Below are positions 8-37,467 of a stretch of 37,467 nt of DNA, piece by piece. The translations under genes were made by a program, and so were the position numbers. Positions within the stretch are counted from its first letter, which is position 1; each line of letters starts with the position of its first letter. The notes below the pieces were generated by a model. The model was not told the origin of the DNA and did not search any database. It saw only the letters and a list, made by a program, of their open reading frames with translations. The stretch comes from a virus: UHGV virus genome UHGV-0220213. The stretch is one strand, 5' to 3'.

Positions 8-1996
8 ATGAAAGAATGGTATACAGCAAAAGAGTTGCTCGGTTTGGCAGGTTTACCAAAGCAAGCCACTAACATTACACGTAAGGCACAAAGAGAAGGC
101 TGGGAGTTCAGGCAGGTTGCAGGGACTAAAGGTGTATCATTTGAATTCAATATCAAATCATTCCCTGTCGCATTACGTGCTGAAATTCTGTTGCAACAAG
201 GGAGAATTGAAACAAGCCTGGGCCGTTTTGAAATCGCCCGCCCCACGCTGGAAGCCCATGATTATGATCGTGAGGTGCTGTGGAGCAAATGGGATAAAGC
301 CAGCGATTCCCAGCGCAGACTTGCTGAAAAATGGTTGCCTGCGGTTCAGGCTGCAGACGAAATGCTGAACCAGGGGATTTCAACGAAAACGGCTTTTGCG
401 ACCGTTGCAGGGCATTACCAGGTCAGCGCATCCACTTTGCGGGACAAGTATTACCAGGTACAGAAGTTTGCGAAGCCTGACTGGGCGGCTGCACTTGTTG
501 ATGGACGTGGTGCATCCCGTCGCAATGTTCACAAAAGTGAATTTGACGAGGATGCCTGGCAGTTTCTGATTGCAGATTATCTGCGACCGGAAAAACCCGC
601 CTTCCGCAAATGTTATGAGCGTCTGGAACTGGCAGCCCGCGAGCATGGCTGGAGTATTCCCTCCCGTGCCACGGCCTTTCGCCGGATTCAGCAACTGGAC
701 GAGGCAATGGTTGTTGCCTGTCGTGAAGGTGAACATGCACTGATGCATCTGATACCGGCACAGCAGCGAACTGTGGAACACCTGGACGCCATGCAGTGGA
801 TCAACGGCGACGGTTATCTGCATAACGTCTTTGTACGCTGGTTTAACGGTGATGTGATCCGTCCGAAAACATGGTTCTGGCAGGATGTGAAAACCCGAAA
901 AATTCTGGGCTGGCGCTGCGATGTGAGCGAGAACATTGATTCAATTCGCCTCTCGTTCATGGATGTTGTGACTCGCTACGGTATCCCGGAGGATTTTCAC
1001 ATCACCATTGATAACACCCGTGGTGCTGCGAATAAATGGCTGACGGGAGGCGCGCCCAATCGCTACCGCTTTAAGGTGAAAGAAGACGATCCAAAGGGAT
1101 TGTTTTTACTGATGGGTGCGAAAATGCACTGGACAAGCGTTGTTGCCGGTAAAGGCTGGGGCCAGGCAAAACCTGTTGAACGTGCTTTCGGTGTTGGTGG
1201 GCTTGAGGAATACGTTGATAAGCATCCGGCACTGGCTGGCGCATATACGGGGCCAAATCCGCAGGCAAAACCTGATAACTATGGCAACCGCGCTGTTGAT
1301 GCAGAGCTGTTTCTGAAAACCCTTGCCGAAGGTGTGGCGATGTTCAATGCCAGAACAGGCCGTGAAACAGAAATGTGCGGGGGCAAACTCTCGTTTGATG
1401 ATGTTTTCGAGCGTGAATACGCCAGAACGATTGTGCGTAAGCCAACCGAAGAACAAAAACGGATGCTGTTACTGCCTGCCGAGGCGGTGAACGTTTCACG
1501 CAAAGGCGAGTTTACGCTTAAAGTTGGCGGCTCCCTTAAAGGCGCGAAAAACGTTTATTACAACATGGCATTAATGAATGCCGGCGTGAAAAAAGTTGTG
1601 GTCAGGTTTGATCCGCAGCAGCTACACAGCACGGTTTATTGTTACACCCTGGACGGTCGGTTTATCTGTGAAGCGGAATGTCTGGCACCTGTTGCATTTA
1701 ATGATGCTGCGGCAGGCCGTGAATATCGCCGCCGCCAGAAACAACTGAAATCTGCAACTAAAGCAGCCATTAAGGCGCAGAAACAAATGGACGCGCTGGA
1801 AGTTGCTGAACTGCTGCCGCAGATAGCCGAACCAGCAGCACCAGAATCACGAATTGTTGGTATTTTCCGGCCTTCCGGTAATACGGAACGGGTGAAGAAT
1901 CAGGAGCGTGATGATGAATACGAAACTGAGCGTGATGAATATCTGAATCATTCGCTGGATATTCTGGAACAGAACAGACGTAAAAAAGCCATTTAA
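8..1996 (+). CDS. A: DDE transposase MuA (662 aa)
   Basis: Translation matches recalled Mu transposase A along most of its length; the N-terminal ~60 aa diverge from canonical Mu (D108-like). First gene of the window. Confidence 0.93.
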
Positions 1997-2034: not shown

Positions 2035-2973
2035 ATGAATATTTCCGATATTCGCGCAGGACTGCGCACGCTTGTAGAAAATGAAGAAACCACCTTTAAA
2101 CAAATTGCTCTTGAGAGCGGACTTTCTACCGGAACTATCAGTAGTTTTATCAATGATAAGTACAACGGGGATAACGAGCGTGTTTCACAAATTCTGCAAC
2201 GCTGGCTGGAAAAATATCATGCAGTTGCAGAACTACCTGAACCGCCCCGCTTTGTGGAAACGCAGACGGTAAAACAAATCTGGACAAGTATGCGTTTTGC
2301 CAGCCTGACTGAAAGTATTGCTGTTGTATGTGGCAATCCTGGTGTGGGCAAAACCGAAGCGGCCCGTGAATATCGCCGCACCAATAACAATGTCTGGATG
2401 ATCACCATTACGCCATCCTGTGCCAGCGTTCTGGAATGTCTTACTGAACTGGCGTTTGAGCTGGGAATGAATGACGCACCACGCCGTAAAGGGCCGCTCT
2501 CCCGCGCCCTGCGACGTCGCCTTGAAGGTACACAGGGGCTGGTTATCATCGACGAAGCTGATCATCTTGGTGCCGAAGTTCTGGAAGAACTCCGCCTGTT
2601 ACAGGAATCAACCCGTATTGGCCTTGTGCTGATGGGAAATCACCGGGTTTATTCAAATATGACGGGGGGTAACAGAACGGTTGAATTTGCCCGTCTGTTT
2701 TCCCGTATTGCAAAGCGCACTGCAATTAATAAAACCAAAAAAGCCGATGTAAAAGCTATTGCGGATGCCTGGCAGATTAACGGCGAAAAAGAACTGGAGT
2801 TATTACAGCAGATTGCGCAGAAACCAGGTGCGCTTCGTATTCTGAATCATTCACTTCGCCTTGCCGCCATGACGGCTCACGGTAAAGGTGAGCGTGTTAA
2901 CGAAGATTATCTGCGTCAGGCTTTCCGTGAATTAGACCTGGACGTTGATATTTCAACGCTGCTGCGTAATTAA
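2035..2973 (+). CDS. B: Transposition target-DNA activator MuB, AAA+ ATPase (312 aa)
   Basis: 312 aa as in Mu B; Walker A motif GNPGVGKT; directly downstream of A. Confidence 0.93.
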   Translation: MNISDIRAGLRTLVENEETTFKQIALESGLSTGTISSFINDKYNGDNERVSQILQRWLEKYHAVAELPEPPRFVETQTVKQIWTSMRFASLTESIAVVCGNPGVGKTEAAREYRRTNNNVWMITITPSCASVLECLTELAFELGMNDAPRRKGPLSRALRRRLEGTQGLVIIDEADHLGAEVLEELRLLQESTRIGLVLMGNHRVYSNMTGGNRTVEFARLFSRIAKRTAINKTKKADVKAIADAWQINGEKELELLQQIAQKPGALRILNHSLRLAAMTAHGKGERVNEDYLRQAFRELDLDVDISTLLRN

Positions 2974-3460: not shown

Positions 3461-3730
3461 ATGGCAAAAGTAATCTTTGAATTTAACAATACAAGAAATA
3501 TTGAGTTTCAGGAAAATGGAGGTTTTGCCGTAAATATGAATGTGCGACTGGAAGAATCCTCACCTGAGGACCAGACCGGGCCACATGATGTAATGGCAGG
3601 CATCATCAAGAGCATGGCTCCTGAAATCATTAAAAAAGCGACCGAGGAGTTGTTGAAATCAGCCAGGGAGCTTGGGCTGGAAGCTGAGGGGAAATTATTC
3701 AGCTATAACCCGAATACAGCCAGACATTAA
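3461..3730 (+). CDS. Early-region hypothetical protein (89 aa)
   Basis: ORF with upstream SD; early-operon position. Confidence 0.6.
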   Translation: MAKVIFEFNNTRNIEFQENGGFAVNMNVRLEESSPEDQTGPHDVMAGIIKSMAPEIIKKATEELLKSARELGLEAEGKLFSYNPNTARH

Positions 3731-3750
3731 TTCGCAAAGGAACGCTGACA

Positions 3751-4489: not shown

Positions 4490-5014
4490 ATGGCTAAACC
4501 AGCAAAACGTATCAAAAGTGCCGCAGCGGCTTATGTGCCACAAAACCGCGATGCGGTGATTACTGATATTAAACGCATCGGGGATTTACAGCGCGAAGCA
4601 TCACGTCTGGAAACGGAAATGAATGATGCCATCGCGGAAATTACGGAGAAATTTGCGGCCCGGATTGCACCGATTAAAACCGATATTGAAACCCTTTCAA
4701 AAGGCGTTCAGGGATGGTGTGAAGCGAACCGCGACGAACTGACGAACGGCGGCAAAGTGAAAACGGCAAATCTTGTCACCGGTGATGTATCGTGGCGGGT
4801 CCGTCCACCATCAGTAAGTATTCGTGGTATGGATGCAGTGATGGAAACGCTGGAGCGTCTTGGCCTGCAACGCTTTATTCGCACGAAGCAGGAAATCAAC
4901 AAGGAAGCGATTTTACTGGAACCGAAAGCGGTCGCAGGTGTTGCCGGAATTACGGTTAAATCGGGAATTGAAGATTTTTCCATTATTCCATTTGAACAGG
5001 AAGCCGGTATTTAA
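4490..5014 (+). CDS. gam: Gam host-nuclease inhibitor, DNA-end-binding (174 aa)
   Basis: 174 aa, matches recalled Mu Gam sequence (MAKPAKRIKSAAAAYVPQNRDAVITDIKRIG...). Confidence 0.9.
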   Translation: MAKPAKRIKSAAAAYVPQNRDAVITDIKRIGDLQREASRLETEMNDAIAEITEKFAARIAPIKTDIETLSKGVQGWCEANRDELTNGGKVKTANLVTGDVSWRVRPPSVSIRGMDAVMETLERLGLQRFIRTKQEINKEAILLEPKAVAGVAGITVKSGIEDFSIIPFEQEAGI

Positions 5015-5112
5015 TACCACCATTAATATTTAATTAATTCACATTCTTTTAATTATGGCGCGATGCGTCAGGGGATTGCTCGCGCCTGAAACAGATTACT
5101 GAGGAATAAAAC

Positions 5113-5643
5113 ATGGTTGATGCAAAAATTCTGAATGGTGTCAGCACATTATTACGGGCTTACGGACGCCTGACCTGCGGAGTTCTGGCTGAAAAAATGA
5201 AGATGCCTCCCTCATCAATGGTGTATTTCCTGCGTGATGCGGTTGATGCCGGCGTTCTCACCGAATGCAACGGATTTTATGACGTTCCGCGCCCGCGTCC
5301 GACGCCGCCTGTAAGACGAAACGCAACTGAGCAGCCTGCTGTTGATGATGCGGTGTGGTGCAACTGGCGTCGCTCATTACCCTGGGTGGAAGGTAATACC
5401 ATCCCCGCGCTGGCAAAAGAGTTTGCGACGGGCGTGCTGACCTGTGAATCCGTTCACATCGTTGCAGAACTGGACAACAGAATGTGCGAACAGGGAATGC
5501 CCCGTTTTGTGATGGCTTATATCGATATCCGGCTGGGGCGTTTTATTTGCAGTTCAAGCGCCTGGAATATCACCGACCATGTACTGCGTTATCTCATTCT
5601 TGATTGTTCTCCGGCTCCCACAGCGGTGCAGGAGGTGGCGTGA
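5113..5643 (+). CDS. Early semi-essential region protein (176 aa)
   Basis: ORF with SD GAGGAA upstream; stop overlaps the next start (TGATG). Confidence 0.6.
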   Translation: MVDAKILNGVSTLLRAYGRLTCGVLAEKMKMPPSSMVYFLRDAVDAGVLTECNGFYDVPRPRPTPPVRRNATEQPAVDDAVWCNWRRSLPWVEGNTIPALAKEFATGVLTCESVHIVAELDNRMCEQGMPRFVMAYIDIRLGRFICSSSAWNITDHVLRYLILDCSPAPTAVQEVA

Positions 5644-6173
5644 TGTTTTTTAAAACGTCAAATCCCGCAGCACTGCTGGCATGGGACCAGTTTATGGCGG
5701 ACTGCCTGAAACTACGCGAAGAAGCCCGCCATCTTGATAAGGTTCTGGGTTGTGGTTGCCGGTCAGTATTCAGCACAGGTATTGGTGGGCGTCATTTTCA
5801 TGGCGTGAATTTTCCGGGGAATGAGCGACCTTTCTCGCCGGAGTTGTGGACTGTACAACGCTCCGCATCAGGTAACAGTTGCAGGCCAAGAACATCGCGC
5901 ATTCCTGCACATCTGCGGGAGCAGTCAAAAGAGCTGGCGAAAATATGGCAGGAGAATATTCCGGTCACTTATGCCCGTACTGACGCTCTCTTACCCGCAC
6001 TGGGACTGGATTTCAGCGCAACAATATTCGGCCCGCTCCGGTGGTTCCGTGTTGGTGATGTGATTTACGTCATGACAGGGATGACTCCCGCACAGGGCCG
6101 CATGACTGAAATCCTTTCTGACGAATTTATCCGGGCGCAAAAACAGGCGGAGGTAAACAATGGAAAACAATGA
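5643..6173 (+). CDS. Early semi-essential region protein (about 176 aa)
   Basis: ATG at 5643 overlaps the upstream stop; same frame as track ORF 5604-6173. Confidence 0.55.
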   Translation: MFFKTSNPAALLAWDQFMADCLKLREEARHLDKVLGCGCRSVFSTGIGGRHFHGVNFPGNERPFSPELWTVQRSASGNSCRPRTSRIPAHLREQSKELAKIWQENIPVTYARTDALLPALGLDFSATIFGPLRWFRVGDVIYVMTGMTPAQGRMTEILSDEFIRAQKQAEVNNGKQ

Positions 6174-6343: not shown

Positions 6344-6655
6344 ATGAATAATGGTGTATTTTCAAAATCAGAAGAGCTTGCCGCCCTGCTGATTGCCGGT
6401 GGTTTGCCGAAAAAAGAAGTGCATGACTTTGTGAATTTTGTATATGAGCCGTCTCATGAAAAAGCTATTGATGAAGTCATGGCGTACCGGTTTGGCATTA
6501 TTGCTGAGTCACTGAGTCCTCACTGGATTATTGAAAATCTCCGCACTATTGCTGATGGTAACGATAAAGTGGCGGCTGTCGCCGCCCTTGATGTGCTGCA
6601 ACGTATGAACCGGGAACTATTCAATCCCGAGTTTCTTTTTAAGAAACGAGGTTAA
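6344..6655 (+). CDS. Early-region hypothetical protein (about 103 aa)
   Basis: SD AGGTGA five nt upstream of the ATG at 6344; last + strand ORF before the coding gap. Confidence 0.55.
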   Translation: MNNGVFSKSEELAALLIAGGLPKKEVHDFVNFVYEPSHEKAIDEVMAYRFGIIAESLSPHWIIENLRTIADGNDKVAAVAALDVLQRMNRELFNPEFLFKKRG

Positions 6656-7033
6656 CCACTGTTTGCCGACGTCTGTTACGAGCGTCATCGGGGCGTCGGC
6701 AAGGTCCTGTTTTATGCGCTCAAGAATGGGTTTTTGATGTAGTGCTTTCGCAAAATCATGACCATCTTGTGTAAGTCTGACACTGGTGCCTGAATATGAA
6801 TATCCGAGGCTTGTTGGGGTGAGACCAATGCTTTTTGCGGTGCCTGTTTCCAGATATCTGTTGCTGATAAAACCATTTTCAACCAGCAACAGAAGATGGA
6901 AAACCAGCTTCTGATGGCTGTCGCTGTGCCGCTGAGAACGATCCCAGCCGACATCTTCCAGTCGAATGAATGCGGTGTCGGCCTCCAGAAAAACATCAAA
7001 TATTCTGGCTATCTCGTCATAATCAATTTTCAT
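6617..7033 (-). CDS. Opposite-strand hypothetical protein (138 aa), function unknown
   Basis: Only ORF filling the ~400 bp + strand coding gap between 6655 and gemA; SD AAGGAA about 8 nt upstream of its ATG on the minus strand; balanced, protein-like composition. Confidence 0.5.
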   Translation of the reverse strand: MKIDYDEIARIFDVFLEADTAFIRLEDVGWDRSQRHSDSHQKLVFHLLLLVENGFISNRYLETGTAKSIGLTPTSLGYSYSGTSVRLTQDGHDFAKALHQKPILERIKQDLADAPMTLVTDVGKQWLTSFLKKKLGIE

Positions 7034-7063
7034 ATCTCATTCCTTAATATGAGAGGTGAGCAA

Positions 7064-14923: not shown

Positions 14924-16223
14924 TCTGGCGTATGCCGCACGCCTCCCGCCAAAGGAGGCTGTCGCGTATTTCCGCGCCAAAGGCTACAACATCACCTGGA
15001 ACTGGTACGAACAACTGGCAGACGCGCACGCACGCGCCTTTACCGTTGCCAAAGCCACCCGGATGGATGTACTGACCACAATCCGTGAGGAAGTGGAGCG
15101 GGCTGTCAGTGAAGGCATCACCCGTGAGGAATTTACCCGCACACTGGCCCCCCGGCTGCAAAAACTCGGATGGTGGGGAAAACAAATCATCGTGGATGCA
15201 GAGGGAAACGCGAAGGAAATCGAACTGGGCAGTCCGCGTCGTCTGGCAACCATTTATGACGTCAACACCCGTACAGCATATGCGGCGGGACGTTATGCGC
15301 AGATGATGAACACGGCGGACCTGTATCCGTTCTGGCAGTACGTTGTTGTCGAAGATGGCAGAACGCGCCCGGAACACCTCTTGCTGCGCAATATGGTTTT
15401 CCGGTGTGACGATATTTTCTGGCAGACGCATTACCCGCCGAACGGCTGGCGCTGCCGCTGTCGCGTCCGGGCGCTGTCTGCGGCCCGCATGAAAGAGCTG
15501 GGGTTACAGGTCAGTTATGGTGCGTCATTCATGAATACCCGCGAAGTGGATGCCGGTACGGATGAAAGCACCGGAGAGATTTTCCGCACATCGTCAACCA
15601 CGTTTGACAACGGTCGGGTAAAAATGACGCCGGATGTGGGCTGGTCATATAACCCCGGTTCGGCGGCATTTGGTACGGATCAGGCACTGATTCGAAAACT
15701 GGTGGAAGTTCGTGACGCGCAGCTGCGTGAGCAGGTTGTTCAGACGCTGAATAACAGCCGGGAGCGTCAGCTTGCTTTTTCCCTCTGGCTTAAACGCCTG
15801 GCAGGATCACGTCAGACCGGTCATGAAATCCGGGCGCTGGGGTTTATGACGGGATCCGTGGCTGAAGCCGTATATCAGCGCACCGGGAATATGCCAGCCC
15901 GTCTGCTTGTAATGAACGGGAAAAGTCTGGCGACCACTGCTGATGCCGCCCTGAAACCGGAAGATTTACAGCGTCTGCCGTCGCTGATGGCAAAACCACA
16001 GGCGGTATTGTGGGACAGGGAGAACCACCAGTTGCTGTATGTTGTGGCAACCCGTGACGGCACGGCCCGGATTGTGGTCAGAACATCACAGACAGTCGGC
16101 AGGCAGAATGACCGGGCGGATGTGCTGGTCAGTATCAGCCGCGTATCTGCACAGTCGCTTGAAGCCGCGATTGCTGACGGGATGATTGACATACTGGAGG
16201 GGCATGTGGAGGTGAATAAGTGA
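14904..16223 (+). CDS. F: Head morphogenesis protein F (Mu gp30-like)
   Basis: ATG at 14904 (alternative GTG at 14868); follows the portal gene. Confidence 0.8.
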   Translation: MPQQTIDLAYAARLPPKEAVAYFRAKGYNITWNWYEQLADAHARAFTVAKATRMDVLTTIREEVERAVSEGITREEFTRTLAPRLQKLGWWGKQIIVDAEGNAKEIELGSPRRLATIYDVNTRTAYAAGRYAQMMNTADLYPFWQYVVVEDGRTRPEHLLLRNMVFRCDDIFWQTHYPPNGWRCRCRVRALSAARMKELGLQVSYGASFMNTREVDAGTDESTGEIFRTSSTTFDNGRVKMTPDVGWSYNPGSAAFGTDQALIRKLVEVRDAQLREQVVQTLNNSRERQLAFSLWLKRLAGSRQTGHEIRALGFMTGSVAEAVYQRTGNMPARLLVMNGKSLATTADAALKPEDLQRLPSLMAKPQAVLWDRENHQLLYVVATRDGTARIVVRTSQTVGRQNDRADVLVSISRVSAQSLEAAIADGMIDILEGHVEVNK

Positions 16224-27658: not shown

Positions 27659-28239
27659 ATGATTCCGCCCTGAACCGCCTGCTGACGCCGCTGATGCGTC
27701 GTGTGCGCCTGATGCTTGCGCGCGCTGTTGTTAACGTGATTAACGACGGGCGAAAGGTTCAGAACCTGCAGGTCGGTCTGCTGGATGATGAGGAATCCGA
27801 TGAAGTGGAGCGCCTGCAAAATTACGGACATTTCAGCGTTCCCCTGCCGGGCGCAGAGGCGCTGATTGCCTGTGTGGGTGCACAACGTGATCAGGGGATC
27901 GCCGTTGTGGTGGAAGACCGCCGCTACCGCCCGACAAATCTTGAACCGGGTGATGCAGGCATTTACCACCACGAGGGGCATCGTATCAGGCTGACAAAGG
28001 ACGGACGCTGCATCATTACCTGTAAAACGGTTGAGGTTTACGCTGATGAAGGCGCGACCGTTGACACCCCGAAAGCCACGTTTACCGGAGATGTTGAAAT
28101 TCTGAACGGCCTCAGCGTTAAAGGTGAAAGTGACTTTGCAGGCAATATCAGCGCCCCGGATGCCATCATCAATGGCAAATCGACGGATAAGCATATCCAC
28201 CGTGGCGACAGCGGCGGAACCACAGGGCCGATGCAATGA
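27646..28239 (+). CDS. Baseplate spike/puncturing protein (Mu gp45-like, 197 aa)
   Basis: Size and order as Mu gp45. Confidence 0.75.
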   Translation: MERVNDSALNRLLTPLMRRVRLMLARAVVNVINDGRKVQNLQVGLLDDEESDEVERLQNYGHFSVPLPGAEALIACVGAQRDQGIAVVVEDRRYRPTNLEPGDAGIYHHEGHRIRLTKDGRCIITCKTVEVYADEGATVDTPKATFTGDVEILNGLSVKGESDFAGNISAPDAIINGKSTDKHIHRGDSGGTTGPMQ

Positions 28240-28673
28240 CCGATTTAGCCATTATCTGGACGAACGGACGCGGCGATATTGCGCAGGATGGTATTGATAT
28301 GCTGACCGACGACAGCCTGACAACCGATGTGACAATCTCCCTGTTTACCGACCGGCGCGCGCTGGATTCTGACACGCTGCCGGATGGTTCAGATGATCGC
28401 CGTGGATGGTGGGGTGACAGTTACCGCGACCGCCCCATCGGTTCGCGGTTGTGGCTGTTATCACGTGAAAAAGCCACGCCGGATACACTGGAACGCGCCA
28501 GAGGGTATGCCGAAGAGGCGCTGGAATGGCTGAAAACAGCGGGCCGGGTAAGTGCGATTAACGTCAGAGCGGAACAGTTACATCAGGGCTGGTTATACCT
28601 CTACATTGCACTGACATTACCGGATGGTTCCGTTATTCCTTATGAGTTTAAAGCAGCATTTAACGGGGTTTAA
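28236..28673 (+). CDS. Baseplate wedge protein (Mu gp46-like, 145 aa)
   Basis: Size and order as Mu gp46. Confidence 0.75.
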   Translation: MTDLAIIWTNGRGDIAQDGIDMLTDDSLTTDVTISLFTDRRALDSDTLPDGSDDRRGWWGDSYRDRPIGSRLWLLSREKATPDTLERARGYAEEALEWLKTAGRVSAINVRAEQLHQGWLYLYIALTLPDGSVIPYEFKAAFNGV

Positions 28674-30289: not shown

Positions 30290-31755
30290 TGTTTTATATT
30301 GATAACGACAGCGGCGTAACCGTCATGCCGCCCGTATCCGCCCAGCGTAGTGCTATCGTTCGCTGGTTTTCAGAAGGTGACGGGAATAATGTTATCACAT
30401 GGCCCGGCATGGACTGGTTTAATATTGTGCAGGCGGAGTTATTAAACACGCTGGAAGAAGCCGGTATTCAACCGGATAAAACAAAATTAAACCAGCTTGC
30501 ACTGTCCATTAAAGCCATTATGAGCAATAACGCGCTGCTGATAAAAAATAACCTCAGCGAAATTAAAACTGCCGGGGCATCAGCACAGCGTACAGCACGT
30601 GAAAATCTGGATATCTATGATGCCAGCCTGAACAAAAAAGGACTCGTTCAGCTAACCAGTGCCACTGACAGCCCCAGTGAAACGCTGGCAGTCACCGCAA
30701 AAGCGGTGAAAATTGCGATGGATAATGCCAATGCCCGTCTGGCAAAAGACCGGAACGGAGCAGATATTCCCAATAAGCCGCTGTTTATCCAAAACCTCGG
30801 TTTACAGGAAACGGTAAATCAGGCTTCTGGCGCATTACAGAAAAACCAGAACGGCGCAGATATTCCGGGGAAAGATACCTTCACCAAAAATATTGGGGCC
30901 TGCCGCGCATATAGCGCATGGCTGAATATTGGTGGCGATAGTCAGGTCTGGACAACCGCGCAATTTATTTCGTGGCTGGAGAGTCAGGGAGCATTTAACC
31001 ATCCTTACTGGATGTGCAAAGGCTCATGGGCTTATGCAAATAATAAGGTCATTACAGATACAGGTTGCGGAAATATTTGTCTTGCAGGTGCTGTGGTGGA
31101 AGTTATTGGCACTCGCGGCGCAATGACCATACGCGTTACTACGCCGAGCACGTCCAGCGGTGGCGGAATTACTAACGCTCAATTCACTTATATTAATCAT
31201 GGTGATGCTTATGCTCCTGGCTGGCGACGAGACTACAACACGAAAAATCAACAACCTGCATTTGCTTTAGGGCAAACAGGAAGCACTGTCGGAAATGATA
31301 AAGCTGTTGGCTGGAACTGGAATAGCGGGGTCTATAACGCAAATATTAGTGGCGCATCGACATTAATCCTCCACTTCAATATGAATACGGGGAGTTGCCC
31401 TGCTGCACAGTTCCGCGTGAATTACAGAAATGGCGGTATCTTTTATCGTTCAGCGCGTGATGGTTATGGCTTTGAAGCTGACTGGTCAGAGTTTTACACC
31501 ACAACCCGCAAACCCTCTGCGGGAGATGTTGGTGCATATACGCAGGCAGAATGTAACTCAAGGTTTATTACAGGTATTCGCCTTGGCGGTCTGTCATCTG
31601 TTCAGACATGGAATGGTCCCGGCTGGTCTGACAGGTCAGGTTATGTCGTTACGGGTTCAGTTAACGGAAACCGTGATGAATTAATTGATACAACTCAGGC
31701 AAGGCCAATTCAGTATTGCATTAATGGGACTTGGTATAACGCGGGAAGTATTTAA
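30289..31755 (+). CDS. S: Tail fibre protein S: constant part Sc fused to variable part Sv inside the G segment (488 aa)
   Basis: ORF crosses the left G inverted repeat at 30785-30818, which encodes QNLGLQETVN; C-terminus resembles that of S'. Confidence 0.85.
   Translation: MFYIDNDSGVTVMPPVSAQRSAIVRWFSEGDGNNVITWPGMDWFNIVQAELLNTLEEAGIQPDKTKLNQLALSIKAIMSNNALLIKNNLSEIKTAGASAQRTARENLDIYDASLNKKGLVQLTSATDSPSETLAVTAKAVKIAMDNANARLAKDRNGADIPNKPLFIQNLGLQETVNQASGALQKNQNGADIPGKDTFTKNIGACRAYSAWLNIGGDSQVWTTAQFISWLESQGAFNHPYWMCKGSWAYANNKVITDTGCGNICLAGAVVEVIGTRGAMTIRVTTPSTSSGGGITNAQFTYINHGDAYAPGWRRDYNTKNQQPAFALGQTGSTVGNDKAVGWNWNSGVYNANISGASTLILHFNMNTGSCPAAQFRVNYRNGGIFYRSARDGYGFEADWSEFYTTTRKPSAGDVGAYTQAECNSRFITGIRLGGLSSVQTWNGPGWSDRSGYVVTGSVNGNRDELIDTTQARPIQYCINGTWYNAGSI
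30785..30818. repeat. Left 34-bp inverted repeat of the G segment (gix-type Gin crossover site)
   Basis: TTATCCAAAACCTCGGTTTACAGGAAACGGTAAA matches the reverse complement of 33704-33737 with one mismatch. Confidence 0.9.
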
Positions 31756-31757
31756 TT

Positions 31758-32291
31758 ATGATGCACTTAAAAAACATTACCGCTGGTAATCCTAAAACAG
31801 TGGAGCAGTACCAGCTAACAAAGCAATTTAACATTAAGTGGCTTTATTCAGATGATGGAAAAAACTGGTATGAGGAACAAAAGAATTTCCAGCCAGACAC
31901 TTTGAAAATGGTCTATGACCATAACGGCGTTATTATTTGTATTGAAAAGGATGTTTCAGCAATTAATCCGGAAGGCGCAAGCGTCGTTGAATTACCTGAT
32001 ATTACAGCAAATCGCCGGGCTGATATTTCGGGGAAATGGTTGTTCAAAGATGGCGTAGTGATAAAGCGAACTTATACCGAGGAAGAGCAGAGGCAACAAG
32101 CGGAAAATGAAAAGCAAAGCCTGTTGCAACTTGTCAGGGATAAAACCCAGCTATGGGACTCACAGCTACGGCTGGGCATCATTTCCGACGAGAATAAACA
32201 AAAATTAACCGAGTGGATGCTCTATGCGCAGAAAGTCGAATCTACAGACACCTCCAGCCTGCCAGTAACGTTTCCCGAACAACCAGAATGA
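31758..32291 (+). CDS. U: Tail fibre assembly chaperone U (177 aa)
   Basis: Paralogous to the minus-strand U' (shared N-terminal LKNI..GNPKT..EQYQLTK). Confidence 0.85.
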   Translation: MMHLKNITAGNPKTVEQYQLTKQFNIKWLYSDDGKNWYEEQKNFQPDTLKMVYDHNGVIICIEKDVSAINPEGASVVELPDITANRRADISGKWLFKDGVVIKRTYTEEEQRQQAENEKQSLLQLVRDKTQLWDSQLRLGIISDENKQKLTEWMLYAQKVESTDTSSLPVTFPEQPE

Positions 32292-32319
32292 GAGAAGGCC
32301 CGATATTGGGCCTTAATTT

Positions 32320-32847
32320 TTACTCAGGCTTTTGTGGCCATTCGGGATTTGCTGTATCCACACGGCTGACCAGAACGCTGTAGCGTTCCCATGACTCCAG
32401 TCGTGTGCGTTCCTCATCCGTCGCCATATTCAGCCTGACAGCGCGTTCCAGTGGCTGAATAACGCTTTCAGCTTCAGAAAGCAACGCGACCTTTTGTGAT
32501 TCGGCCTGTTGTTGCTGTTCGTCTGCTGTATAAATCCGCTTAACCACAGTTCCGTCCTTAAACATCCACTTCCCTGAATCATCGGCACGACGATTGGCTG
32601 TTATATCTGGAATCTCAACGACACTAAAGCCTTCGGGATTAAGCGTTGAGGCATCTTTGGTGATGGCAACAATAATATTATTTTCGTCGTATACAATCTT
32701 TATGGTGTCGTCCTGAAAGTTATTTACTTCCTCATACCAGTTTTTACCGTCTTCGGACCATAACCAGATAACATCAAAATTCTTTGTTAGCTGATATTGT
32801 TCTTTTGTTTTTGGATTTCCGGACTTAATATTTTTTAAATGCTGCAT
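32320..32847 (-). CDS. Alternative tail fibre assembly chaperone U' (175 aa)
   Basis: Minus-strand paralogue of U inside the G segment. Confidence 0.85.
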
Positions 32848-32850
32848 AAT

Positions 32851-33703
32851 TTACACCTGTGCGACGTTATACCATGTGCCATTGATGTATTTTTGTATTG
32901 GTCTGAAGATGGCTTCATCATCGCCATCTACTTCACCAATGATTCTTAATCCGGTAATTGCGTGTCCGGCTTTTTCATAACGACCACCACGCGCCATCAA
33001 TTGAACAACACGCGTACCCAGGCGAACATCTTTTACATAGCGTGAATCAAAATTCCCCCAGTTGCTGGGCTGCATCTGACCGTTAACAGAAAATATTACC
33101 GAGTTATCTGTATTTCGCTGGCTATAGAAATGCCATCCTGCCTCATCGCCTAACTCTGCAACTACTGGACGGGTTGAAGCACCCCATAAATTAAACGTTG
33201 CATTCTTTGTGGAGTTGTTGGAGCTGGATAGCGTGAATTTTTTACCATCCCCGGCCTGAATATTTTTAAAAGCAATAGCCACTCCATTCTGAAAGCGGAA
33301 TACACGCTGACTATTAGCATAAACATCCAGAATACCGTCTCCATTCTGTTTAAATCCGGTGTCATTATCACCAAGAACAATAGAGCTACCACCTAACGCA
33401 TTCGTCGAACCAACTCCAAGACTGCCATTAATGACAGCATTAACAAGAATATTTAGTGCATCCCATTTCAGCGTCATCAGGTCTTTTGTTGTGGTGCTCT
33501 GGCGGCTTCTCCATTTGAAATATTCATTGCCGTTGTCGCCTGTTTCAAACCACATGTATGAATCAGTGTCACCATCGGCATCATTTTTAAATCCAATCTT
33601 CGCCCAGTCAGTATTTCGAATCCAGGCAAGGATTGAGTCATTTTCAAAAGTAAGCCCACCGGACAAGGTATCGCCATTTTTTTGCACGGCGTTACCAGCC
33701 CTG
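32851..33703 (-). CDS. Sv', alternative variable part of the tail fibre (no own promoter; fuses to Sc after inversion)
   Basis: Minus-strand frame stays open from 32851 through the right inverted repeat, where it also encodes NLGLQETVN; C-terminus homologous to S. Confidence 0.8.
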
Positions 33704-33737
33704 TTTACCGTTTCCTGTAAACCGAGGTTTTAGATAA
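33704..33737. repeat. Right 34-bp inverted repeat of the G segment (gix-type site)
   Basis: TTTACCGTTTCCTGTAAACCGAGGTTTTAGATAA, reverse complement of the left repeat with one mismatch. Confidence 0.9.
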
Positions 33738-35349: not shown

Positions 35350-35417
35350 TGAAGCGCGAAAGCTAAAGTTTTCGCATTTATCGTGAAACGCTTTCGCGTT
35401 TTTCGTGCGCCGCTTCA
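35341..35417. repeat. Mu right end (attR) with three transposase-binding repeats (R3, R2, R1)
   Basis: TGTTTCATTTGAAGCGCGAAAG (35341-35362), then two opposite-orientation copies ending ...CGTGCGCCGCTTCA at 35417. Confidence 0.85.
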
Positions 35418-35740
35418 GCGAACACAATACACAATGCAGAAACCAGTAGCGTATTGAGCAGGCCGACAATAAAAACGCGTCCGTAAGTGTCGCCTTGCTG
35501 ATAATCAATCAAATGCTGAACGATGCCAAAACCGGCCCCGCGGTCAAGAAAAGCAAATCCTGATGTTATGCCGCGATTACTGAGATTCGTTACAGTGTTG
35601 TGAAATAACCAACCAATAATGCCGACAACAGCAACAACGGCAAGGATCTGGAATAACCAGGCGCGAACCGTAGGGTTGGCAAAAGAGAGTGAGCCTTTAA
35701 CGGTTGAGCGGCGATGAGACATAGAAACCTCGGAAAGCAT
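35418..35740 (-). pseudogene. yhdX: 5' fragment of an amino-acid ABC transporter permease gene (yhdX-like) interrupted by the prophage
   Basis: Minus-strand ORF starts at 35740 with TM-rich permease N-terminus and runs into the phage end, terminating in phage DNA at 35378; only about 107 codons are host-encoded. Confidence 0.7.
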
Positions 35741-35789
35741 AACGCTGAAGAGAGCGCCGCCGTAGCGACGCTCGTTACCTCACACCGAC

Positions 35790-36815
35790 TTAACGCACGG
35801 GCGGCGCGTACTGAATACCGCCGTTATTCCAGAGATTATTTTGCCCACGTTTAATTTTCAGCGGGCTTTCTGAACCTACGTTACGCTCGAAAATTTCCGA
35901 GTAGTTACCCACCTGTTTGATGATGTTAAAGGCCCATTTATTATCCAGCTTCAGATCCTTGCCGTAATCGCCTTCTTTACCCAGCAGATGTGCCATATCA
36001 GGCGTTGCTGGATTAGCCGCTTTTTCATCGACGTTCTGGGAATTGATGCCCATCTCTTCAGCATTCAGCATGGCGAAAAGCGTCCAGCGTACAATCGAGA
36101 ACCATTCATCATCGCCACGACGAACTACCGGCCCAAGCGGTTCTTTAGAGATAACTTCCGGTAAGACAATCCATTCAGCTGGGTTGCTTAATTTGATGCG
36201 CAGGGCATACAGTTGTGATTGATCCGAGGCTAGCGTATCGCAGCGACCAGATTCCAGTGCCTTCGCTGATTCGTCAGAGCGATCGAAAGTCACTGGTGTG
36301 TACTTCATATTGTTTGCCTTGAAGTAATCGGCAACATTGAGTTCAGTATCAGTACCCGCCTGAATACAGACGGTAGCGCCATCCAGTTCTTTCGCGCTTT
36401 TTAGCCCCGCTTTATCGTGCGTCAGGAAGCCAATGCCGTCGTAATAAGTGACGCCAGTAAATGCCATTCCCATCCCGGCATCGCGAGATGAAGTCCAGGT
36501 CGTATTACGGGAGAGCAAATCCACCTCCCCTGACTGTAAAGCGGTGAAGCGTTCTTTTGCAGTGAGCGGGGTATATTTCACTTTCGTATCGTCACCGAAT
36601 ACAGCAGCGGCAACGCCACGACAAACATCTACATCAATACCTGAAAACTTACCGTCAGCATCGGCATAAGAGAACCCAGGTAATCCATCACTGATCCCGC
36701 ATTGCACAAAACCTTTTTTCTGAACGGCATCAAGCGTCGCGCCAGCATGCGCCTGATTTGCAACGGCAAGCAGCACGCTGGCGGCAGCCAGTGTGGCTAT
36801 CATCATCTTTTTCAT
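35790..36815 (-). CDS. yhdW: Periplasmic amino-acid-binding protein of an ABC transporter (341 aa)
   Basis: Signal peptide MKKMMIATLAAASVLLAVANQAHA; solute-binding protein features; upstream of the permease gene. Confidence 0.75.
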   Translation of the reverse strand: MKKMMIATLAAASVLLAVANQAHAGATLDAVQKKGFVQCGISDGLPGFSYADADGKFSGIDVDVCRGVAAAVFGDDTKVKYTPLTAKERFTALQSGEVDLLSRNTTWTSSRDAGMGMAFTGVTYYDGIGFLTHDKAGLKSAKELDGATVCIQAGTDTELNVADYFKANNMKYTPVTFDRSDESAKALESGRCDTLASDQSQLYALRIKLSNPAEWIVLPEVISKEPLGPVVRRGDDEWFSIVRWTLFAMLNAEEMGINSQNVDEKAANPATPDMAHLLGKEGDYGKDLKLDNKWAFNIIKQVGNYSEIFERNVGSESPLKIKRGQNNLWNNGGIQYAPPVR

Positions 36816-37212
36816 AATGCTTCCTGTGAGGCGAAAATTATCGTTATAGGACGTTTGGGAAACGTCTTTTACCTGTCTGTGGCCATCCTCTTATAAGCAA
36901 AAGTAGTGCCAGCTTTTGCGCACGATTTCGCGTCGCAATAAGCTGAGTGTAGACAGGAAATAATAAAAACAGCGCCCCGCAATGGTGCGAAAATGAAACA
37001 TGCGCCACATTTTGGCGCAAAATATTTACGCGTTTTTTACTAAGCAGAATAATGATTGTTAGCGTGAGTATATTTCTGGTGGGATGTGTGAAAGTTAAAT
37101 TGATGCGTTATTTCGAAAGCAGCGAAATAACGTGATATAACATGCTAAATCAGCAGGGAATTACCCAGCAGAATATAGCAATATTTTATCTTATGGAAAG
37201 ATACTGTATCGT

Positions 37213-37240
37213 TAAAAAGAGCGCGGAGCTCCGCGCCCTG
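37213..37240 (-). terminator. Rho-independent terminator of yhdV
   Basis: Perfect palindrome GCGCGGAGCTCCGCGC followed by TTTTT on the minus strand, immediately after the yhdV stop. Confidence 0.7.
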
Positions 37241-37245
37241 TTTAG

Positions 37246-37467
37246 TTATTTCGACAGAGCGATGATCCCCATCGTCAGGCCAGCAACAGCTGCTGCCCCG
37301 CCGGCAATAGCCCCAGCCGTTTCCCAGTTATCCTGAGTCGTGCCTTTCATACAGGTATTGGTGTGAACCAGACGACCCTGGTCGTCATAAACCGGAACGC
37401 AGGGCGAATCGTGAGCACAGCCCGCCAGCAATGCGGTGAGCAATGTCACAGGAATTAATCTTTTCAT
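37246..37467 (-). CDS. yhdV: Small lipoprotein (73 aa)
   Basis: Lipobox LLAGC after a signal peptide; Gly/Ala-rich C-terminal TM segment; start codon is the last triplet of the window. Confidence 0.7.
   Translation of the reverse strand: MKRLIPVTLLTALLAGCAHDSPCVPVYDDQGRLVHTNTCMKGTTQDNWETAGAIAGGAAAVAGLTMGIIALSK

Follow-up and report, generated by a model that had tools for sequence, protein, structure and literature searches.

A D108-type N-terminal domain in the transposase of a mosaic Mu-like prophage of Escherichia coli

The transposase gene A of the Mu-like prophage found in UHGV virus genome UHGV-0220213 begins with a segment whose product is identical to that of phage D108 and strongly diverged from that of phage Mu. 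We consider it very probable that this segment encodes the I-alpha domain in its D108 allele, and that it forms the last part of a D108 immunity block joined to a Mu-type A body. The stretch of DNA that was analyzed, hereafter called the window, is 37,467 nucleotides long and starts seven bases before the ATG of A. The segment is an already known allele of MuA I-alpha, ordinary and common, and neither a new mechanism nor a new family is implied by its presence. The difference between Mu and D108 in the transposase N-terminus was reportedly described in the 1986 work of Mizuuchi, Weisberg and Mizuuchi in Nucleic Acids Res 14:3813. The features of the prophage are collected in Table 1.

Table 1. 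Features of the prophage and its surroundings, in window coordinates unless another record is named.
Feature	Position	Strand	Type or remark
Transposase gene A	8..1996	+	662 aa plus stop, ATG start, full Mu A domain order
D108-type module, codons 1-66, I-alpha winged helix-turn-helix domain	8..205	+	63/63 identical to D108 A
Putative specificity determinant ATNITRKAQ, codons 21-29	68..94	+	HTH turn plus start of second helix
I-alpha/I-beta linker region	206..305	+	recombination junction; lineage-private R73, V90, K97
Rest of A: I-beta/I-gamma end-binding, DDE core, domain III	236..1993	+	Mu-type DNA
Transposition protein B, partner of A	2035..2973	+	312 aa ORF
Mosaic block, left end	left end to 205		D108-type, 771/778 informative sites
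Mosaic block, A gene body	codons 416-628		Mu-type, 34/34 informative sites
Mosaic block, gene 7	3494-3735		D108-type
Mosaic block	5000-5500		mostly Mu-type
Mosaic block	6354-7063		in neither Mu nor D108
Right end, attR with transposase end-binding sites	35358..35417	+	last 60 bases identical to Mu, different from D108
120-aa yhdX fusion ORF into phage right end	35378-35740	-
GCGAA, first 5 host bases past right end	35418..35422		predicted 5-bp target duplication, inside E. coli yhdX
c-ner spacer cluster	L005 5657-5690 = D108 936-968		among AAATCA/TGATTT repeats

Transposase Gene and Domain Architecture

The reading frame of A does encode the N-terminus that had been quoted in an earlier sequence-only reading of this DNA, and the Mu sequence given there for comparison (MELWVSPKECANLPGLPK...) is the genuine N-terminus of Mu A in AF083977. 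By criteria of sequence, fold and architecture, A is a member of the Mu-family DDE transposases. Its Pfam domains follow one another as HTH_Tnp_Mu_1 (residues 8-141), HTH_Tnp_Mu_2 (148-255), DDE_2 (256-472) and Mu-transpos_C (485-555), and PF02316, PF09039, PF02914 and PF09299 all score far over their curated cut-offs, in the order of MuA. The available Mu A structures align to A near-perfectly (4fcy over residues 76-604, 1bcm over 247-573, 2ezk over 76-173 and 2ezh over 173-246), whereas the match of the Mu I-alpha structure 1tns to residues 1-75 is much weaker (phmmer, E = 1.1e-14). The DDE triad is intact as D268, D335 and E391, in local motifs identical to those around D269, D336 and E392 of Mu. 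The B gene that follows A is annotated, in relatives where it is identical, with AAA_22 and Phage-MuB_C domains.

Two reference proteins serve for comparison. D108 A (GQ357916 / NC_013594, ACV50262) has the same length of 662 aa, the same start context and the same domain order, and differs from the A of this prophage at 7 of 662 residues. Unlike D108, the prophage carries Mu alleles in its DNA from codon 416 on, including those for T503 and A610 in the protein; L71 is also Mu-type, and R73, V90, K97 and N427 are private to the lineage. Mu A (AF083977, AAF01083; I-alpha structure 1TNS/1TNT) shares with the prophage protein its fold family, architecture, DDE triad and C-terminus, and Mu shares the right-end DNA, but residues 1-63 are only 38% identical to Mu A and are one residue shorter, G43 of Mu being absent.

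The D108-Type Segment and Its Boundary

Over residues 1-63, A is identical to D108 A at 63 of 63 positions (GQ357916) and to Mu A at 24 of 63 (AF083977). The earlier suggestions that the first ~60 residues diverge from Mu A and that the domain is of D108 type are thereby borne out, with 39 differences from Mu A in this stretch, and the N-terminus is plainly not that of canonical Mu A. The divergence lies far above what chance would give. Past residue 63 the picture is reversed, as had also been noted for the part beyond about residue 65: residues 64-662 differ from Mu A at 5 positions and from D108 A at 7, and residues 77-662 are ~99% identical to both, with only three differences from Mu A (V90, K97 and N427) and complete identity to Mu in residues 575-662.

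The DNA gives the same division. Bases 1-200 of the window are 100% identical to D108 and, in the same register, 36% identical to Mu; in megablast searches Mu aligned from window base 196 on, and D108, Mu_3F6 and SfMu from base 1. D108-specific sites extend to 202-205 (codons 65-66), and Mu-specific ones begin at 217 and 219 (codons 70-71), which places the switch from D108 to Mu within codons 66-70, at window ~205-217, a few bases beyond the limits of 8-200 that had been proposed from the sequence alone. In the linker region, these two Mu-type sites are followed by private sites at 223-225, 276-277 and 298. The module boundary coincides exactly with the point where Mu and D108 regain homology.

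Other N-terminal types do exist among the Mu-like phages of E. coli: the A protein of PhiR68_1 is 56% identical over the first 80 residues, and an 86.5% module variant is present in five E. coli genomes. Given these types, the lineage-private R73, V90 and K97 just past the domain, and the single-base differences in the operator region of relatives, the A N-terminus might represent a third specificity, neither that of Mu nor that of D108. This is highly improbable, for residues 1-63 are those of D108 A, bases 1-200 match D108 throughout, and the private changes fall in the linker and I-beta, outside the I-alpha fold core. A third N-terminal type is ruled out by the identity to D108.

The position of the segment at the extreme edge of the window could suggest an artefact, whether through chimeric assembly or through a misplaced start codon or frame. 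Against this, the frame runs on unbroken into the remainder of A, and D108 A is annotated with this ATG as its start. The upstream sequence continues smoothly in 10 independent contigs from different samples, and likewise in D108, Mu_3F6 and SfMu. The chance of an artefact is negligible, and an assembly artefact is ruled out by the ten independent copies, nine of which show 0 mismatches and one a single mismatch.

The D108-type N-terminus is found in further phages. Over the first 80 aa, SfMu is 93.8% and Mu_3F6 97.5% identical to the prophage protein; the two phages are nonetheless not identical to the prophage, at 97.3-97.5% over the first 2 kb. SfMu also has c and Ner of D108 type, although its c and D108 c share no more than 89% identity (PMC4406740).

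Fold, Paralogy With the Repressor and Putative Specificity Residues

Residues 1-76 alone score 67.1 bits against PF02316, for a cut-off of 23.3. A single-sequence AlphaFold (AF2) model of I-alpha, of moderate confidence (pLDDT 73.9), places strands at residues 4-6, 34-38 and 43-48 and helices at 7-12, 17-20, 23-30 and 54-70, a predicted topology of strand, HTH, beta-hairpin wing and long helix. Its sole significant matches in the PDB are 1tns (E = 3e-5), the I-alpha domain of the Mu transposase, and 1qpm (E = 3e-3), the DNA-binding domain of the Mu repressor, both with a probability of 1.00; the TM score with 1qpm is 0.66-0.71.

The kinship with the repressor is also seen directly in the proteins. 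The N-terminus of A and that of the D108-type repressor are paralogues, with 47% identity over 76 aa (E = 4e-21). The D108-type repressor c (174 aa), like the Mu repressor domain 1QPM, has an N-terminal winged HTH paralogous to that of this A; it differs from A in having no end-binding or catalytic domains and a C-terminal region of its own, and it is encoded outside the window. In both Mu and D108 the repressor and the transposase resemble each other at the N-terminus, which is the topic of the 1986 paper by Mizuuchi, Weisberg and Mizuuchi, to go by its citation in PMC3820752.

In a four-sequence alignment of the A of this prophage, the D108-type repressor, Mu A and the Mu repressor, 12 positions are invariant and likely make up the fold core. 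Another 7 are constant within a type and different between types, and 5 of these 7 lie at alignment positions 21-30. This is the region of the stretch ATNITRKAQ, which, compared as residues 20-28, is identical to the D108-type repressor at 8 of 9 positions and at 1 of 9 to each of Mu A and the Mu repressor. Its type-specific columns 21, 22, 23 and 25 are residues T22, N23, I24 and R26 of A, and the putative recognition stretch reads ATNITRKA in this A as against SAGVIYVA in Mu A. The helix that is predicted at 23-30 falls on the same stretch, for which a role in DNA contact is suggested. Such a residue match between A and repressor would be expected where a phage's transposase and repressor are rivals for common binding sites and each immunity type reads a sequence of its own.

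In Mu, I-alpha promotes transpososome assembly through enhancer binding (PMC3362531), and the enhancer overlaps the repressor-bound operators O1-O3, with two clusters of MuA sites flanking an IHF site (PMC3145075). The assignment of operator/enhancer binding to the N-terminal domain, made beforehand for this prophage, agrees with these reports on Mu (PMC3362531; PMC3145075). Homology, together with co-variation with the repressor, suggests that the A described here would bind the operator/enhancer of its own phage.

Linkage to the D108 Immunity Module

The c gene, operators and ner of this particular copy lie beyond the window and were typed through its relatives. The exact A protein is recorded in 53 blocks of the assembly collection, and 10 places, at 10 different insertion sites, were compared. 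Across the 7,996 bases that they share with the window, nine of the ten copies (L005-L011, L018 and L019) show 0 mismatches and the tenth (L004) shows one. The left ends of all ten are colinear with D108 bases 1-1278, with 13-14 mismatches. All ten share one 174-aa repressor, identical to D108 c at 172 of 174 residues and to Mu c at ~28%, as well as a Ner of 73 aa that is identical to D108 Ner (73/73) and 47% identical to Mu Ner. The operator region directly upstream of A is likewise the same in all 10 copies at the level of D108 type, and in the c-ner spacer of the relatives an 11-bp inverted repeat (CCGTGAGCTAC, 8 bp, GTAGCTCACGG) is kept intact before ner.

Linkage holds equally among finished genomes. 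The D108-type A segment is present in 45 of 5,426 complete E. coli genomes, and a query of 1,134 bases, made up of c, the operators and ner plus 195 bases from the start of A, was recovered in each of the 45 as a single full-length piece; in 5 of them the module is the 86.5%-identical variant. It might still be that, in this copy, the D108-type N-terminus of A has been uncoupled from its module and now follows, for instance, a repressor and operator region of Mu or another type, so that transposase and enhancer are mismatched, since recombination within A is evident in this lineage and the left end of the copy itself lies outside the window. No case of an A N-terminus apart from its module was found among the 45 complete genomes, the 10 exact-match contigs and 3 phage records. 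The seven bases before the ATG (GTGCGCT) are those with which the D108-type ner-A junction ends, and a metagenome contig with the same host junction agrees with the window throughout 12,090 bases. With these observations, uncoupling is hardly to be expected.

Three indirect lines, from the relatives, from the complete genomes and from the co-variation of A with the repressor, thus point strongly to D108-type immunity for this copy. Its immunity genes and DNA-binding specificity would be those of D108, its A would have the corresponding enhancer specificity, and it would probably be heteroimmune with Mu. A D108-like character is shown for the A segment and is probable, by way of the c-ner region of its relatives, for the immunity type; it does not extend to the element as a whole, which is a mosaic of Mu and D108 (see below).

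Several further differences were seen at the left end of the relatives. Of the 13 differences from D108, six fall close together within 33 bases of the operator region (Table 1), so that the immunity may not be exactly that of D108; this spacer stretch with its repeats is also variable among L003, L010 and L011. At repressor codon 50, the D108 reference (L012 340-864) has N and all 11 natural relatives have Y, and at the paralogous position the A of this prophage, Mu A and the Mu repressor have hydrophobic residues (F, I, V). One may speculate that the repressor allele in the laboratory D108 record is a mutant one, possibly temperature-sensitive.

Mosaic Structure of the Prophage

For the mosaic map, the left end of a relative and the window were combined into a composite, and the sites at which Mu and D108 differ were classified (Table 1). 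Two observations could be taken to mean that the prophage is simply D108 throughout: D108 aligns along the entire window with 97-98% identity, and both the left-end module and gene 7 are of D108 type. The body of the A gene, however, is Mu-type at every informative site, the last 60 bases of the right end are those of Mu, the D108-specific gene 56 is absent from that end, the segment at 6354-7063 occurs in neither phage, and the types alternate along the genome. A D108 prophage throughout is very improbable, and D108 proper is ruled out by the mosaic map. The right-end alignment to Mu stops at the final base of Mu, and that to D108 breaks between 35301 and 35332, with 82% identity over the last 86 bases.

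By these comparisons the entire prophage is a Mu/D108 mosaic and not the D108 genome, and its A protein is a natural hybrid, with a D108 I-alpha domain on a Mu-type body. The hybrid has little functional meaning, as the protein encoded by the A body is nearly equal in Mu and D108.

Blocks of D108 and Mu type alternate at fine scale across window 1-35417, and a few patches at ~5500-6000, 15000-15500 and 28000-28500 are private to the lineage, the density of private sites there being 20-34 per 500 bases. In the segment at 6354-7063, only the first 215 bases match SfMu and Mu-like phages of Yersinia. The segment holds a 138-aa minus-strand ORF (6617-7033), opposed to the early operon, a copy of which in strain 22KM0354 is labelled DUF2513 by RefSeq; neither this ORF nor its neighbor had a match in Pfam or PADLOC, and it may be an accessory gene. 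The invertible G segment (30785-33737) is opposite in orientation to the Mu and D108 reference records and is bordered by conserved inverted repeats; neither reference aligns well to its middle part (~32887-33423).

Frequency Among E. coli Genomes

A Mu-like A/B region was found in 89 complete E. coli genomes. The D108-type module, carried by 45 of them, is more frequent than the Mu type, which is carried by 25 genomes that include several laboratory strains; the rest presumably carry other types, such as that of PhiR68_1. The best match of the window among complete E. coli genomes is at 99.8%, none being at 100%. Strain 22KM0354 has three Mu-like places.

Insertion Site and Spread

The right boundary of the prophage is at window 35417. 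The bases that follow (35418-37467) comprise the 5' part of yhdX, yhdW and neighboring genes, and are 100% identical to strain FDAARGOS_536; yhdX, an amino-acid ABC transporter permease gene of E. coli, is interrupted by the prophage. Three metagenome assemblies, from gut or other sources, contain the same yhdX junction (ERZ27267311, ERZ28660694 and ERR3004182), the contig identical to the window over 12,090 bases being k113_82245 of ENA assembly ERZ27267311. The predicted left junction reads ...GAAGCCCAAAACAGAAGCGAA up to the point of insertion and TGTATTGATTCAC... after it; neither this nor the real right junction had an exact match in the species-representative genome collection.

One of the copies (L008) adjoins the conjugation genes TraG/TraH/TrbF. 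The occurrence of the same sequence at at least 11 chromosomal sites, once beside these conjugation genes, argues that the prophage is a recently active and widely circulating transposable phage with a functional transposase.

Discussion

In the mechanism proposed here, the winged helix-turn-helix of ~65 residues would recognize the operator region of its own phage, which would double as the transpositional enhancer. In Mu, I-alpha brings the transposase to the enhancer, located ~1 kb from the left end, and thereby promotes synapsis of both ends. The repressor, with its paralogous N-terminal domain, would bind the same region and block both early transcription and transposition. The D108 immunity module would consist of repressor c, the operators/enhancer, ner and codons 1-66 of A and be inherited as one block; homologous recombination at codons 66-70 would have linked this block with an A body of Mu type. 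Since the end-binding, catalytic and MuB/ClpX-interacting parts are near-identical in Mu and D108, A should act on the common Mu/D108 ends; the enhancer that it uses and the repressor that blocks it would both be of D108 type. Among the papers that could be searched, none stated D108 enhancer specificity directly; Mizuuchi and Mizuuchi are said to have found in 1989 that D108 A requires the D108 enhancer.

The changes in the linker (R73, V90 and K97), together with the six substitutions in the operator region of the relatives, might define a distinct immunity or enhancer subtype. We regard this as improbable; if true, it would mean a subtype with altered affinity of repressor or transposase, or partial heteroimmunity with laboratory D108.

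The D108-type N-terminus, as part of a D108 immunity block, matters chiefly for annotation. The first 66 codons of A, contiguous with a matching c-ner region in 45 of 45 genomes, serve as a reliable marker of immunity type for Mu-like prophages, and owing to this linkage a window that begins at gene A can still be typed. More generally, natural Mu-like prophages are mosaics that recombine at the boundary of the immunity module.
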